Source of the DNA: Eledone cirrhosa
Lineage: Eukaryota
DNA length: 64,000 nt
NCBI GenBank assembly: GCA_964016885.1
Contig: OZ024751.1
Location: 15,314,001-15,378,000 of the forward strand
Direction of reading: 5' to 3'
A model generated the notes under the pieces. It did not search any database, had not been told where the DNA came from, and was given only the letters and a program-made list of their open reading frames with translations. A program made the translations under genes and the position numbers. Shown in pieces: positions 1,301 through 64,000 of the stretch (position 1 is its first letter; every line of letters starts with the position of its first letter).

Positions 1301-1303
<3 letters not shown>

Positions 1304-1526
1304 AAGGTTTTATTTAAAATTGTTGGGTTACAAGTAAATATTTACTACCCAGACAGCTTCCTAATTTAATGGTCGCTTATAATATGGTACGTCAAAATTA
1401 TTTATAAAACTGTTTATATATTGTATTTTATCTGACGAAGGCATGCCATATTTTTAATATGGTATCCCTGAAATATGTATAATGAAATAAATATGGTTTT
1501 ATAAATATAGTTTCCATTTGGTTAAT

Positions 1527-1533
<7 letters not shown>
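1301..1533 (+). mobile_element. short non-autonomous Penelope-like insertion (inverted 43-nt tail plus forward HHR-bearing segment) in (TA)n
   Basis: 1344-1533 closely matches 53208-53398; 1301-1343 is the reverse complement of ~53438-53483; TA microsatellite on both sides. Confidence 0.7.
1417..1495 (+). ncRNA. type I hammerhead ribozyme motif
   Basis: CTGACGA (1432-1438), long stem II, GAAA (1470-1473), self-complementary stem III ATATGTAT, AUA triplet (cut after 1481), stem I TATTTTAT/ATGAAATA extendable by 6 bp past a bulged G. Confidence 0.72.
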
Positions 1534-9055: not shown

Positions 9056-10058
9056 ATTACATATATCATCATCATCATTGTGGTTTTTACGTCTGCTTTC
9101 CTTGCTAGCAAGGGCTGGATGATTCTACATTGACCAAGTCAGTACTGAAGCAGGGCTACTGATCTTCCAGGTAACCCAGGGATCTGTGCCCCACTTATGT
9201 ATGGTCTCACATTCCACTGAGTGCACAGGAGAGGTTGTCATGTCTTTGACACAACTGAGGGTCCTCCCAACCCCTATATATATATATATATATATATAGC
9301 AAAAAGCTATCAGAAAATCCAGTGATCTTCCAAGTGGAAGATCAAGTAGAGTCCAGGTAAAAATCCAGTTCCAGAGTGAAAGTCCAATATAGGAATTCGA
9401 TATATACATACACACACACACATATAAATCTTCCTTTTTACATCTGTTTTTCCACATTTACATGGATTTGATGGATCTTTTCCTGGATAGTTTCCCTCTG
9501 CTCTGTGTTGCGCTCCTTTGTCATCTTCCCTGTGAGGGACAGCATTTTGAGATCTGCCCTTACTAGTTCTGTCCAGGTTTCTCTTTCCCTTCCTCTACTG
9601 CAACTTCCTTCTACTGGGGATTTTTGGCAGTTCTTCAACTGACAGTTATCATCCATATGCATCACTTATCCATACCAGCATGGTCATCTCTCTTTTACAG
9701 TATATTTGATTCCCCTTGTTCTCAGAAATTATAAAATAAGCCAATGAAATCTACATTTAATAGAATGTTATGTTAATGTATTTATTTGTGAAGGCTTAGT
9801 GGTTAGGGAGTGGGGTTTACAATCATGAGGTTGTGAGTCCGATTTCCTGGCTGGGTGATGTGTTGTGTCCTTGAGCAAGATCCTTTATTTCACATGGCTC
9901 CTTCTGCCAGGAGTTGCAATTGGAAAAACTAAGGGAAACATTGTTTCCTTGGTCTGATCTGACAAGTTCTACCTTGGTAAGCAAATGAGGTCTGAGATCT
10001 TGTTTATTCAGATCAATGTCTTTATTTATTAAGTCTGTTGATGTTATTTCTATTTTAG

Positions 10059-13048: not shown

Positions 13049-13460
13049 TAATAATAATAATGAAATTATTGTGTAAAGTGCTCAGGTGCACTACAACTCG
13101 TCAAAGGTGTATGTATAGTACATAGAATAATACACAAATGTCAGGGAAGTACATGTGTGTATGTGTTAGCTGTAGTGTTGGCGGATCTCGGGAAGCATGG
13201 AGGCCTTAAAGGATGCAGTGTCTCGACAGCTAACAACTGATGCAGGTAGTTTGTTCCATGCTTCAGCAACTCTGAGCGTGAAAAAATGTTTCCGAAAGTC
13301 ATGGGAACTGTGCTGTTTTCTTACTTTGTGGGCATGTCCACGTGTGTTAGACACATGGAAATCAAAAAGGTACTCAGGGTTGTTGTTGGCAACATGGTTA
13401 ACAATTTTGTGCGTGTTTACCAAGTCAGTTGCCAGGCGTCGGAGCTTCAATGTGTTGGAA
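13049..13460 (-). mobile_element. CR1-clade LINE 3' fragment
   Basis: TLKLRRLATDL..HKI.N...TRGH..K.RKQ....FRKHFFTLRVAEAWNKLP; (ATT)n tail; same family as 47288-48072. Confidence 0.85.
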
Positions 13461-13489
13461 GGTATTACAGCAGTATGTGAGTGTATGTA

Positions 13490-13566
<77 letters not shown>

Positions 13567-14017
13567 ATGCATGCATGTGTGCACATGTAAGTTATTTTAT
13601 CAAGAAATTTATCAGAATTAAAATATAAGCTAATTAATGAAGGAGGTAAATTGTTGGGATAACATGCAGAAGATCTTAAGCAACAATTTCAGATGAGGCT
13701 TATTAGAACTGAGATGAAAAAATAAAAACATATATAAGTAGAATAAATGTAGATTTTTACACAAGTATTTAATAAATTAAAATGCTAATTTAGAAAGACT
13801 AACATCAACAGCATTTCAGTAGTTTTAATAGTATAAAGGTTTCTTGTATTTCTACATGAATTATTGAGGTAATTCCTACATAGAATTTATTTGATTAACA
13901 TTTGTTTCATTTTTCAATAGGCAAAAACCAAAACTACTGTAAAGGAATATATATATTATCATCATCGCTTTTATGTCCACACACACACACACACATATAA
14001 CACATATAGAACAGCAG

Positions 14018-18039: not shown

Positions 18040-19400
18040 TTGCACTGACCCAGAAGTGGGCCGAGTGCAAACTGTCCCTGAAAGGTATATATAGCGTCCG
18101 TCATCTACTACCGCCTGACCGTTGTGCCTTGCCCAAGGGAAACGCTCGCCAAAATGGAGCGCGCACTCTTCCAATTCCTTTGGAAGAAGCGGGCTCCTAT
18201 GGTGAGGAGATCCATCTGCTGTCAACACCCTTCGAAAGGAGGGCTGGGGATGCCGTGGCTAATGATACGTAAACATGCATTAAGGCTACGGCACCTTCAG
18301 GTATTCCTCTCCGGTCAACCGGTGTGGGCCCCGTTTGTGAGGCGAGCCTTTCCCAGACTCGTCTTACTCACCGAGCTGCAATCCTGGGTCAAGCAAAGAC
18401 CGAGAAAACTGGGTGCCTGGCACACCGAGTGTGCCCAGGCACTCACGGCTCTCTGGCAGGCGGACCCGGCTGTCAGTGGAGAATCCACCTCATCATTCTA
18501 TAGAGGGCTGGTGGTTAGCAGGTGCGACGACGCTCTCGGAGAAGCCCTAGGCATGGAGGAAGACGAACTGGCCAACCTGTTCGGTAGGACATTCAGCCCG
18601 GGACCCATGGATAACTTCCAGAGGTCCCTGGCCTGGCAATGCTACAGAAGGGCTCTGCCCGTTCGAGAAAGGCTCTACAGACACGGGCACCCGGGTAGGG
18701 ACCCCTCGAAAAAGATCTATCCCCGATGCGTGTGTGACGAGGAAACTGTTGCACACGCATTGGTACACTGCTCGGGCATTGCCGATCTGTGGGGCTATGT
18801 CGAACAACTGCTGTCAAGGGTGGGACCGATCCGGTTGACCACCGAGTCTATTGTAACGATAAAGCCGCCTCCCCTCTTCAAAAACGAAGAAGAGGCGGTG
18901 TTTCTGTGCGTAATAGCCATGGCGAAAGAGGTTGTATGGTGGACGCGTCTGAAAGGACTGAGGTCAGACACCTTTCTCTCTGGCCAACAACTGGTCCGTT
19001 TCTTCCGATATCATTTCGGAAGAAGGATCAGGATGGAGAGAGAGGTGCTGCACCCCAGCCGTTTTTATGAAAGATGGGTGAAAGTGGCGAGAATGGCCCG
19101 TGTGAATGGGCCTTCACTCTACATCAGACTATAGGTGAGGAAGATGAAAGACCAAGGGAGCACCCCTTCTCTGTGCTCCTGAGGAAAAGGGTTGCACACT
19201 TTTTTTCGGGGGTGTGTGCGACCCCCCAAGGCGCCTCCTCTCTATTGAGGACTTTGTTATAAATTTTATTTTTTGTTATATTTTATTTGATTTTTATATA
19301 TTGTTATTGCCTCCTCCTTATTGAGGATGCCTTGTTTTGTAAACTCCCCCCCATTGTACTTGTCCCACTTTTGATGCCCTGGTGGCAAATAAAAGAAACA
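18040..19400 (+). mobile_element. 5'-truncated Tx1/L1-type non-LTR retrotransposon (ORF2 C-terminus with zf-RVT-like region)
   Basis: ORF 18124-19134 with FLW...GGLG.P, LAW......LP....L and C..ET..H....C motifs; W...KLSLKG just upstream in another frame; AATAAA/A-rich end; 13-bp TSD TATCTATATATCT at 18027-18039 and 19401-19413; CpG-rich. Confidence 0.9.
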
Positions 19401-24914: not shown

Positions 24915-24985
24915 CCATCTTCTGATGAAGGACTACTGTCCGAAACGTAAACTCTTTTCTTATATCAAGCATTAAACTAATATAT
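24915..24985 (+). ncRNA. degenerate minimal hammerhead core (Penelope-type relic)
   Basis: CTGATGA-A-GGAC-TACT-GTCC-GAAA-CGTA: perfect core and stem II, palindromic ACGT stem III, but stem I only about 2 bp. Confidence 0.5.
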
Positions 24986-47287: not shown

Positions 47288-48072
47288 TAATAATAATAAT
47301 AATAATGAAATTATTGTCTACAGTGCTCAGGTGCACTACAACTCATCAAAGGTGCATGTATAGTACATAGAATAATGTACAAATATCAGGAAAATGAACA
47401 GTGTACGAGTCATGAAATACATGTGTGCGTGTGTATGGAGGGAGGATATCAGGTATAGTGTTGGCGAATCTCAGGAAACATGGAGGTTTTAAAGGGTGCA
47501 GTGTCTCGACAGCTAACTGATGCAGGTAGTTTGTTCCATGCTTCAGCAACTCTGAGTGTGAAAAAAGTTTCCAAAAGTCATGGGAGCTGTGCTGTTTTCT
47601 GACTTTGTAGGCATGCCCACGTGTGTTAGACACATGGAAATAAAAGAAAAGGTGCTCAGAGTCGTTGTTGGCAAGATGGTTAATAATTTTGTGGGTCTTT
47701 ACCAAGACAGTTGCCAGACGTCGGAGCTTCAATGTATCCATGCCCAGGGAAGCAAGGCGTTTAGAGTACGGTAGATGCCTGATGGAGGGTATTCGCTTGA
47801 TTGCACGTCTCTGAACAGTTTCCAGGCGGTCAATGTTCTGAGCAAGATAGGGGTTCCAGACTGGTGATGCAAATTCTAAGTGTGGCCACACAATAGCTAT
47901 ATACAGCTTTAAATAGAGCGGCTGACAAAGGTCTTGCTGAGCGATGCTAAAACACCCTCGCCCTTCTTGACAATTTTAGAGACGTGCTTCGTCCAACGCA
48001 AATCGTGCTGCTGACAGTAATGCCCAGGTCACGTTCACAAGAAGACTTCTTGATATTAGTGTTGTGGAGGGA
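47288..48072 (-). mobile_element. CR1-clade LINE 3' fragment with frameshifts
   Basis: ERDLGITVS...PHLEFASPVWNPYL..IDRLE.VQRRA.KRIP...LPY..RL..LG..TL..RRL; 3' UTR ending TGCACCTGAGCACTGT..(ATT)n. Confidence 0.88.
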
Positions 48073-51764: not shown

Positions 51765-52047
51765 CTAGAATGGGGAAGAGAAACATTTATACATTAGTTA
51801 AATACCATTCTTTCATCGTTGCAACTTATATCCACATTAATGACGATTTGTTAAAAACTACACTATTCTATATATACATATATATATATGTATATATAGA
51901 TGTGTGTGTGTATATATGTGTATATATATGTATATATATAGTCTGTGTATATATATATATATATATATAGTGTGTGTGTGTGCGTGTGTATATATATATA
52001 TAGTGAAAAATGGAACGGGAACAAAACAGAGGCAGTACGAACAAAGG

Positions 52048-52099
<52 letters not shown>

Positions 52100-52162
52100 T
52101 GTGTGTGTATATATATATATAGTGTGTGTGTGTATATATATATATAGTCATCATCATTATCA

Positions 52163-52203
<41 letters not shown>

Positions 52204-52262
52204 TATATATATATATATATAGGGTGTGTGTGTGTATATATATAGTCATCATCATTATCATC

Positions 52263-52306
<44 letters not shown>

Positions 52307-52341
52307 CGATATTAAACAAATGGAAACTATATTTATAAAAC

Positions 52342-52420
52342 CATATTTATTTCATTATACATATTTCGGGGATACCATATTAAAAATATGGCATGCCTTC
52401 GTCAGATAAAATACAATATA
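52342..52420 (-). ncRNA. type I hammerhead ribozyme motif (sense to UAP1 pre-mRNA)
   Basis: Mirror of 53280-53358; CTGACGA at 52405-52399; predicted cut between 52356 and 52355. Confidence 0.75.
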
Positions 52421-53279
52421 TAAACAGTTTTATAAATAATTTTGACGTACCATAAATATGAGCGACCATTATGTAGGAAGCTGGTTTGGTAGTGAAGTGT
52501 TTATAAATATTTAGTGTTAAGCACAGTTATAAAGAAAGACGGAGAAAAAGAAGAAATGTATGTAAAGAAAAACAGAGAGAGATAGGGGAGAGAGAAATAG
52601 GGAGGAGGTGAAAAAAGAGAGGCAACCGAAGGCAACAGATGAATAATAATAATTCATCATACAAATTGAGAGGTTTAAGAGGGAGGGAGTACGGTAATTA
52701 TTTAGTTATAGTGTTAAGGACAGTTATAGAGGAGACGGAAAGAAAGAAAAAATTAGAGATGAAGAGAAAACAGACAAAATAATAATAATTATATAGGGGG
52801 AGGTGGAAATCAAGAGAGAAATAAGAGAGAACTCTCTTATTTCTCTCTTGATTTCCACCTCCCCCTATATAATTATTATTATTTTGTCTCCCTCTTTCTT
52901 TTCCCCCCACCTCTATCTCTCTCTGTCTGTTTTCTCTTCATCTCTAATTTTTTCTTTCTTTCCGTCTCCTCTATAACTGTCCTTAACACTATAACTAAAT
53001 AATTACCGTACTCCCTCCCTCTTAAACCTCTCAATTTGTATGATGAATTATTATTATTCATCTGTTGCCTTCGGTTGCCTCTCTTTTTTCACCTCCTCCC
53101 TATTTCTCTCTCCCCTATCTCTCTCTGTTTTTCTTTACATACATTTCTTCTTTTTCTCCGTCTTTCTTTATAACTGTGCTTAACACTAAATATTTATAAA
53201 CACTTCACTACCAAACCAGCTTCCTACATAATGGTCGCTCATATTTATGGTACGTCAAAATTATTTATAAAACTGTTTA

Positions 53280-53358
53280 TATATTGTATTTTATCTGACG
53301 AAGGCATGCCATATTTTTAATATGGTATCCCCGAAATATGTATAATGAAATAAATATG
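53280..53358 (+). ncRNA. type I hammerhead ribozyme motif
   Basis: CTGACGA 53295-53301; stem II GG-C-ATGCCATATT/TTT/AATATGGTAT-CC-CC; GAAA 53333-53336; palindromic stem III; AUA cut after 53344; 8+6 bp stem I. Confidence 0.75.
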
Positions 53359-53568
53359 GTTTTATAAATATAGTTTCCATTTGTTTAATATCGTATATCT
53401 ACTCCAAAAACTTGTCGAGTGCTTTATATCAGTTATAAAATATTTACTTGTTGTAACCCAACAATTTTAAATAAAACTTTTGCATATATATATATATATA
53501 TATATATAGTGCATATATATATATATAGTGTGTGTGTGTATATATATATAGTCATCATCATTATCATC

Positions 53569-53627
<59 letters not shown>

Positions 53628-53780
53628 CATATATATATATAGTGTTTATATATATAAATATTGTGTGTGTGTGTATATATATATATATAGTGTGTGTGTG
53701 TATATATATATATAGTGTGTGTGTGTATATATATAGTGTGTGTGTGTGTGTATATATATAGTGTGTGTGTGTGTATATAT

Positions 53781-53829
<49 letters not shown>

Positions 53830-53906
53830 TGTGTGTATATATATATATATTTATTGTGTGTATGTGTATACACATATATACACACATACATGTTTGGTGT
53901 CTACAA

Positions 53907-54720
<814 letters not shown>

Positions 54721-54726
54721 TGTTAC

Positions 54727-54902
54727 CTGGTGCTAAAGCTATACCATTTTTAGCATTATTGATTATTTTCCCATCAAATGTTATACAAGGAAGTAGAAAC
54801 TGTTGAAAAACTATAATATTCTCCTTCTTCAGACCAAAATAGTCATGTTGTTGGAAAAATTGTTCTGTACTTTCTTTGGTGTGGTCACTGGTCATTATAT
54901 AC
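54727..54902 (-). CDS. UAP1: UAP1 exon
   Basis: ccacag|g [59 protein letters not shown]|gtaaca; 176 nt, phase 2 to 1. Confidence 0.94.
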
Positions 54903-55450
54903 CTGTGGCAGGTGGTAGAGGTAATATATTAACAGAGTGACCACTGATCATTATATACCTGTGGCAGGTGGTAGAGGTAAAATATCAATAGAGTGACCAC
55001 TGGTCATTATATACCTGTGACAGGAGGTAGAGGTAAATTAACAGAGTGACCACTGGTAATTATATACCTGTGGCAGCTGGTAGAGGTAAAATATTAACAG
55101 AGTGACCACTGGTCATTATATACCTGTGGCAGGTGGTAGAGGTAAAATATTAACAGTGACCACTGGGTGACCACTGGTCATTATATACCTGTGGCAGGTG
55201 GTAGAGGTAAACTATTAACAGAGTGACCACTGGGTGACCACTGTCATTATATACCTGTGGCAGGTGGTAGAGGTAAAATATTAACAGAGTGACCACTGGT
55301 CATTATATACCTGTGGCAGGTGGAAGAGGTAAAATATTAACAGTGACCACTGGTCATTATATACCTGTGGCAGGAGGTAGAGGTAAAATATTAACAGAGT
55401 ATTACTGTATGACCACTGGTCATTATATACCTGTGGCAGGAGGTAGAGGT
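54881..55450 (-). repeat. 53-66-bp tandem array duplicating a UAP1 splice acceptor and exon start
   Basis: Ten CAG|GTATATAAT units with first exonic base at 54902 (real), 54958, 55014, 55067, 55123, 55188, 55254, 55310, 55364, 55430. Confidence 0.92.
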
Positions 55451-59999: not shown

Positions 60000-60449
60000 A
60001 TACATATATGTATATATATATGTGTATATGTATATGTATATATATGTGTGTATATGTATATATATATGTGTATATGTATATATGTATATATATATATATG
60101 TATATGTATATACATATATATGTATCATTTCATCATCATCATCATTTCATTTTACGTCCACTTTTCCCTGCTTGCAAGGGTGGGACGGGAACTGATTCTG
60201 GCTTGGTTTCTACAGCTGGATGCCCTTCCTAACACCAACCTCATTTACAGTGAGTGGTGGGTGCTTTTTTGCCTCCACGACCACTTTGTAGTGGAATGAT
60301 AGGGACCCCATTTCTACAGCTGAGTAAACTGAAGCAATGTGAAATAAAGTGTCTAGCTCAAGGAAACAACACATCACTCGGTCTGAGAATTGAACTCAAA
60401 ACCTTTCGATTGCAAGGCCAATGCTCTAACCACTAAGCCATGTGCCTCC

Positions 60450-60499
<50 letters not shown>

Positions 60500-60787
60500 A
60501 ACGAAGGAAATGTGGTAAGGAACCAGGTGGACCATAACGCACCAAAGTACTCAATACTTAGGGTAGTAGAGTGGGTAATATATGTATATATATATATATA
60601 TACATATGTTATAATAGGCAATCAAGAAAGATACGGTGGCATCCGAATTTTCAAAATACAAAGTTGAAATGATTGCCTATTATAACAGTGTAGCAATAAT
60701 GGACTGAAATTCCGATGAAACAATTGTTAATACGTGGATTAAATTCTTTTGTAACTGTTTACCTTCGTCCTATTTCTCTTCTTTGAC

Positions 60788-64000
<3,213 letters not shown>

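Follow-up and report, generated by a model that had tools for sequence, protein, structure and literature searches.

We identified two related inserts in the window, the whole 64-kb stretch of Eledone cirrhosa DNA analysed here, that are very probably truncated copies of a Penelope-like element (PLE), as judged from their sequence. Insert A comprises 233 nt at 1301-1533, between (TA)25 and (TA)22, and insert B occupies 52302-53483 as a palindrome whose inverted and forward arms meet at a 2-nt centre, with the forward arm running on for an extra 85 nt. With a confidence slightly above even, we read both as likely 5'-truncated pLTR copies that would have been inserted by priming from both strands of a TA target, at two fixed start sites separated by 85 nt. 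The architecture itself is not new, being the inverted pLTR plus tail of PLEs, and two reverse transcriptase (RT) start sites have also been published (PMC11167929). The informative feature of A is that its two pieces do not overlap. The components of the two inserts are as follows.

1251-1300: (TA)25, left target repeat of A
1301-1343, minus strand: tail-derived piece of A, 43 nt, inverted, reaching the long end; corresponds to B 53438-53483
1333-1346: perfect 14-bp palindrome across the inversion junction of A
1344-1533, plus strand: pLTR-like body of A, 190 nt, forward, reaching the short end; corresponds to B 53208-53396
1424-1489, plus strand: hammerhead-like motif of A, core C3 at 1432, with an 8-bp helix I, a 10-bp helix II hairpin and a 3-bp palindromic helix III
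1531-1574: (TA)22, right target repeat of A, overlapping the short end
52049-52301: left flank of B, TA/GT minisatellite with the same polarity as in the right flank
52302-52829, minus strand: inverted arm of B, 528 nt, reaching the short end, without the 39-nt segment
52348-52413, minus strand: hammerhead-like motif of the inverted arm of B, C3 at 52405, sense to the pre-mRNA of UDP-N-acetylhexosamine pyrophosphorylase (UAP1)
52830-52831: palindrome centre of B, 2 nt
52832-53398, plus strand: forward arm of B up to the short-end site, pyrimidine-rich, without a long ORF
52885-52923, plus strand: 39-nt segment of B, in the forward arm only, flanked by a 4-nt direct repeat
53287-53352, plus strand: hammerhead-like motif of the forward arm of B, C3 at 53295
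53399-53483, plus strand: one-sided tail of B, 85 nt, reaching the long end
53484-53854: right flank of B, minisatellite continuing unmirrored

A and B belong to one family, with ~93% identity and a similarity well above chance (E 7e-89 and 9e-24, blastn within the window). Both inserts (2/2) are bounded by (TA)n, and they share the same two ends, a short end at B 53398 and 52302 and a long end at B 53483. These ends lie 85 nt apart with an uncertainty of ~5 nt, since the short end merges into TATAT. A first-pass annotation had placed both insertions within (TA)n, with a common short and a common long end 85 nt apart and facing opposite ways, and had divided A into 43 nt inverted and ~190 nt forward; all of this holds. 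The two fixed termini that it proposed are supported, and so is its suggestion of a retroelement (cDNA) origin.

In a global alignment, A follows reverse-complemented B colinearly, interrupted by a single gap of ~945 nt; the colinear blocks pair A 1291-1343 with B 53493-53438 and A 1344-1545 with B 52493-52292. A is the architecture of B flipped, with the centre absent. Since a head-to-head insert with a one-sided tail looks swapped whenever it lands reversed, orientation is no evidence for mechanism, and the swapped orientation that had earlier been taken as a mechanistic hint adds nothing. The inverted piece of A (1301-1343) differs from B 53483-53438 by one substitution and one 3-nt indel, and the forward body (1344-1533) differs from B 53208-53396 at 13 columns. 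Ten of these fall in the 40 nt adjoining the junction and three in the other ~150 nt, where two of the three are CpG to TpG changes. Neither blastn nor nhmmer detected a third copy of the family within the 64-kb window (n=2). A (TA)12 repeat at 9275-9310, followed by a 7-mer resembling the long end, showed no further similarity and was set aside as probably a chance match.

Insert B is probably a genuine structure, although its two arms show 0 substitutions over 528 nt and differ solely by the 39-nt indel. Such identity would suit a fold-back artefact of assembly or library preparation, with A alone being real, and polishing could cause it likewise. However, a fold-back chimera would mirror the flanks, and those of B are unmirrored: the flank motif occurs three times on the plus strand and never on the minus strand, GTGT is found 20 and 47 times against 0 and 0 for ACAC, and the order of the minisatellite units runs on across the insert. 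The 39-nt indel between the arms also argues for a real palindrome, as does the inverted arm, which ends at the same base as the independent end of A. We therefore consider an artefact very improbable. The earlier statement that the palindrome is real is thus borne out, by the unmirrored flanks, by the arm indel and by A, which repeats both ends independently. B also contains a diverged internal duplication (74%, ~200-nt spacing; 52882-52991 and 53084-53188) upstream of its hammerhead-like motif, and the downstream duplication holds a counterpart of the 39-nt segment.

A and B carry a hammerhead ribozyme-like motif, a feature that the first-pass annotation lacked. In both inserts CTGACGA is followed by a 10-bp hairpin, GAAA, helix III (3 bp, palindromic) and helix I (8 bp), a predicted layout that is type I hammerhead-like, and the core precedes the short end by 103 nt and the long end by 188 nt. 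A descriptor composed only after the motif had been noticed gave three matches on both strands of the 64 kb, every one within A or B, and none in shuffled sequence (0/5000 for A, 0/5000 for the B arm and 0/30 for the window). Looser descriptors returned the same three matches, with any match at all in 3-4 of 100 window shuffles. Rfam called no hammerhead, either over the window at the gathering threshold or at 1250-1600 with E up to 10, where only TA-repeat noise was returned. The bare core pattern is not enriched in the window (9 matches against a mean of 4.9, a count attained in 14 of 100 shuffles), and the folding z-scores of the motif are modest (-2.5 in A and -1.4 in B). The motif shows PLE-type traits, namely an unpaired base after position 9, a long bulged helix II and a small palindromic helix III, and G10.1-C11.1 is present in the B motif; these traits are listed for metazoan PLE hammerheads (PMC4209133).

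Two further minimal hammerhead-like cores, of other sequence, lie at 24922-24954 (plus strand) and 48309-48279 (minus strand). Each follows a pyrimidine-rich stretch and fails the helix I filter; a TA run is located ~120 nt downstream of the core at 48309-48279, and no inverted arm was seen at either core. They are probably decayed PLEs of other families.

Published PLE traits include an inverted truncated copy, a tail confined to one end and (TA)n targets (PMC8557442, PMC3846280, PMC8969392), and A and B present the head-to-head inverted truncated copy, the one-ended tail and the hammerhead-like motif near the 3' end. Neither insert, retaining at most 652 nt, contains RT or endonuclease sequence, so the assignment to PLEs rests on non-coding features; the absence of ORFs is expected for 5'-truncated copies. 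Two tail frames of 31-33 aa had no Pfam match, and one 31-aa tail frame had no match among 1.84 billion protein representatives, a comparison of low power.

Endonuclease-positive (EN+) PLEs such as Pen2a_Av share with our family the head-to-head inverted 5'-truncated copy with an extension at one end, the palindrome at the inverted junction and the hammerhead near the 3' end (PMC3846280, PMC8557442). In contrast, the tail of EN+ PLEs measures 30-40 nt (PMC3846280, PMC8557442), as is typical of PLEs (PMC8557442, PMC11167929), whereas that of the A/B family measures 85 ± ~5 nt. A and B also differ from EN+ PLEs in retaining neither ORF nor tandem pLTR; the two short inserts show no direct pLTR tandem, their internal duplication reaching only 74%. 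The part-inverted tail of A, without overlap, is a form not met in the EN+ PLE descriptions within the accessible text of PMC3846280 and PMC8557442. Folding of the tail is not significant (z -1.6 and -1.1), and a small AC-rich stem-loop within it recalls the start region of PAc (Poseidon of Anolis carolinensis) but, being weakened in A, is given no weight here.

Among known PLE clades, Hydra shares with A and B (TA)n targets, a sense hammerhead, a short palindromic helix III and occurrence in cephalopods, and one of its members, Penelope-13_HM, has an inverted truncated copy (PMC8557442). The distance from the hammerhead core to the 3' end is 63-186 nt in 23 of 24 Hydra-clade entries and 401 nt in the remaining one (PMC8557442 supplement; the 24 exclude two rows, an antisense duplicate and a 5'-located motif). 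The A/B distances of 103 and 188 nt lie within and at the edge of the 63-186 nt range, respectively. A two-group split of the published hammerhead-to-end distances was rejected, as the distances proved continuous when calculated. With 2/2 inserts in (TA)n and a hammerhead-like motif in each, the family agrees with the (TA)n preference and canonical hammerhead of the Hydra clade. The hammerhead of Hydra-1_Obim from Octopus bimaculoides differs from the A/B motif (PMC8557442), and two motifs of the A/B element were not found in the accessible part of the PMC8557442 supplement. Moreover, the Hydra clade is defined by RWK, DKT, CxCX5C and the lack of the endonuclease CCHH, whereas no coding sequence survives in A or B. 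The family may belong to the Hydra clade, or instead to Neptune or Poseidon. A PLE of the Naiad clade, which is without a canonical hammerhead, was rejected in view of the complete three-helix motif in A and B.

Other short repeats were considered as well. Metazoan non-LTR retrozymes likewise combine a short non-coding repeat unit and a type I hammerhead (PMC7229834), but they consist of head-to-tail tandem units of 150-450 bp (PMC7229834); A and B are inverted and form no tandem array, and this identity was rejected. A non-autonomous DNA transposon of the MITE or foldback type, inserted at TA, would offer long inverted repeats in a TA context, yet the two ends, offset by 85 nt, do not match each other in inverted form, A lacks terminal inverted repeats, and the hammerhead-like motif is present. 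We give this explanation almost no weight.

The reading of A and B as products of two-sided priming draws on PAc, which in vitro cleaves AT-rich DNA on both strands and extends each of them, is a predicted dimer, and initiates reverse transcription internally, at a pair of sites that delimit the tail and coincide with the genomic ends (PMC11167929). Later steps are unvalidated in that study (PMC11167929). The PAc start sites are alike on both strands, so PAc imposes no forced pairing of short and long ends. By analogy to PAc, an RT/GIY-YIG protein supplied by an unseen autonomous copy would cut both strands within (TA)n. One target 3' end would then prime at the distal site, giving the long end, and its partner at the proximal one, giving the short end. 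As both cDNAs would be antisense, they could anneal only at inverted microhomology or at a short palindrome, and second-strand synthesis would then yield an insert arranged head-to-head, with a tail at only one of its ends. In B, both cDNAs would have exceeded 500 nt, met at one point and annealed at a common short palindrome, and this would require either strand displacement or a second RNA. For A, the distal cDNA would have halted after 43 nt, and a stop short of the proximal site is expected if both primings took place on one RNA. At a little under even chances, A may represent a snapshot of PLE twin priming, in which the two cut strands were assigned to two fixed RT starts of a single RNA, the distal cDNA halting before the proximal site.

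This proposal would share with PAc the AT-rich target, the cutting and extension of both strands, and two RT starts downstream of the hammerhead that define the tail (PMC11167929). It differs in that neither split start sites per strand nor resulting inversions are proposed in the accessible text of PMC11167929. In addition, the ORF of PAc begins inside the hammerhead (PMC11167929), whereas none such is evident in A or B.

The two pieces of A omit ~39 template nt that would separate the tail piece from the short-end site. One round of fold-back necessarily produces an arm overlapping the one it was copied from and so is unable to yield A, for which twin priming is the simplest one-step route. 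The 14-bp length of the junction palindrome was attained in 116 of 38,127 simulated junctions, in a post hoc test in which 8 of the 14 bp are native to the tail. The layout of L1 twin priming, an inversion with an internal deletion (PMC2837659), is found in A only, which has two inverted non-overlapping pieces, an internal deletion and junction microhomology in the form of a 9-nt word common to the tail-cDNA end and to the body at 53187-53195; B overlaps fully and resembles L1 dual priming on two RNAs (PMC2837659). As in L1 twin or dual priming (PMC2837659), both strands would prime, and A combines inversion, deletion and microhomology. However, A and B have no poly(A), their long end directly abuts (TA)n, and the internal priming site is fixed in them but variable in L1 (PMC2837659). 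Their target-site duplication is also unreadable within (TA)n, another difference from L1. A and B are twin-priming-like, but not L1.

A different route, which we consider unlikely though far from negligible, involves a PLE that primed once. Its long-end cDNA would have folded back and been copied to the short-end site to give B, and A would be a B-type palindrome that lost its ~945-nt centre, either in the genome or during copying of a palindromic transcript. Self-priming of this kind has been proposed for Penelope junction palindromes (PMC3846280). In B, the centre is symmetric with a 2-nt spacer, the arms lack substitutions, and the loss of 39 nt at a 4-nt repeat affects the short-end arm only, as for a copied arm; still, a separate cause is needed for copying to have ended at one identical base in A and B, past three earlier alternating-TA runs, and the two RT start sites of PAc are left unused. 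For A, the route takes two events, whereas its relation to B, a reverse complement with one gap, is as a deletion would leave it. A also looks older, given that two of the three differences in its final ~150 nt are CpG to TpG, and without a long inverted repeat it would be a stable end state. The 9-nt word of the junction microhomology lies at or near both deletion ends, but the actual forward piece of A begins ~11 nt downstream of this word, which places the 3' breakpoint that far from the repeat.

Several of these observations count against two-sided priming: there are only two copies, the exactly symmetric centre of B and its 0/528 substitutions suit fold-back at least as well, and the 9-nt microhomology is equally predicted by deletion from a palindrome. 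The two-sided priming suggested by the first-pass annotation is partly sustained. It fits the in vitro data on PAc (PMC11167929) and gives the simplest one-step A, whereas A could also arise by deletion and B by fold-back (PMC3846280).

The short end could also have an origin other than an RT start, since it coincides with TATAT at 53394-53398. The cDNA or second strand might have joined the TA target through TATAT microhomology, or an endonuclease might have resolved an intermediate there; the PLE tail has been ascribed to endonuclease-mediated resolution (PMC8557442). The B arm contains five alternating-TA runs of at least 5 nt, with the short end on one of them, so target microhomology alone could give the match about one time in five. 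The four other runs, including one at 53278 that is longer than the short-end run, were used by neither A nor B, and the genomic ends of PAc sit on RT start sites (PMC11167929). We consider this origin of the short end improbable, and retain priming at two fixed sites as our preferred reading.

With regard to genomic context, the exon at 54728-54901 belongs to UAP1, sharing 84% identity with Argonauta hians and 81% with Octopus sinensis, which points to an octopod as the likely host. Eight UAP1 coding exons on the minus strand, spanning 56769-40914, correspond to residues 91-488 of the Argonauta and Octopus proteins. B lies inside the UAP1 intron 51766-54721, between the exons 54901-54722 and 51765-51583 (minus strand), and A is located ~39 kb past the last UAP1 coding exon. 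In the UAP1 pre-mRNA, B would give a near-perfect double-stranded RNA of ~530 bp, with the hammerhead-like motif of the left arm sense to the transcript, and this RNA could be a candidate for RNA editing or silencing. The same gene contains a 56-bp minisatellite of ~10 copies at 54886-55450, whose unit holds the UAP1 3' splice site and the first exon bases and which creates repeated decoy acceptors upstream of the true UAP1 acceptor.

Other features of the window include LINE remnants at 18082-19134 (plus strand), 13166-13591 (minus strand) and 47346-47975 (minus strand). One remnant is a frame of 350 aa whose zf-RVT match is weak and falls below the Pfam cut-off, and two related fragments presumably resemble RT C-termini of the CR1/L2 type. 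Over the whole window, Rfam at the gathering threshold returned a single match, partial and tRNA-like, at 60383-60440 (minus strand) and just over the cut-off, which is possibly a SINE head. A TA/CA-rich microsatellite array of >3 kb (60770-64000) occupies the end of the window.

The origin of PLE inverted copies and one-sided tails is stated to be unresolved (PMC8557442, PMC11167929). A literature search judged by title and the opening of the abstract found neither a description of the A/B family nor twin priming as a cause of PLE inversions, and an 85-nt PLE tail or a part-inverted-tail copy was not found in print by literature search. Such a copy is hard to recognise with a tail of 30-40 nt and easy to recognise with one of 85 nt. 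As the architecture is known, the value of A and B lies in testing twin priming against fold-back, rather than in a new system. If twin priming is true, a single rule would account for tail, inverted pLTR and junction palindromes of PLEs alike, and the 85-nt tail would make stalled intermediates visible and countable genome-wide in this cephalopod family.
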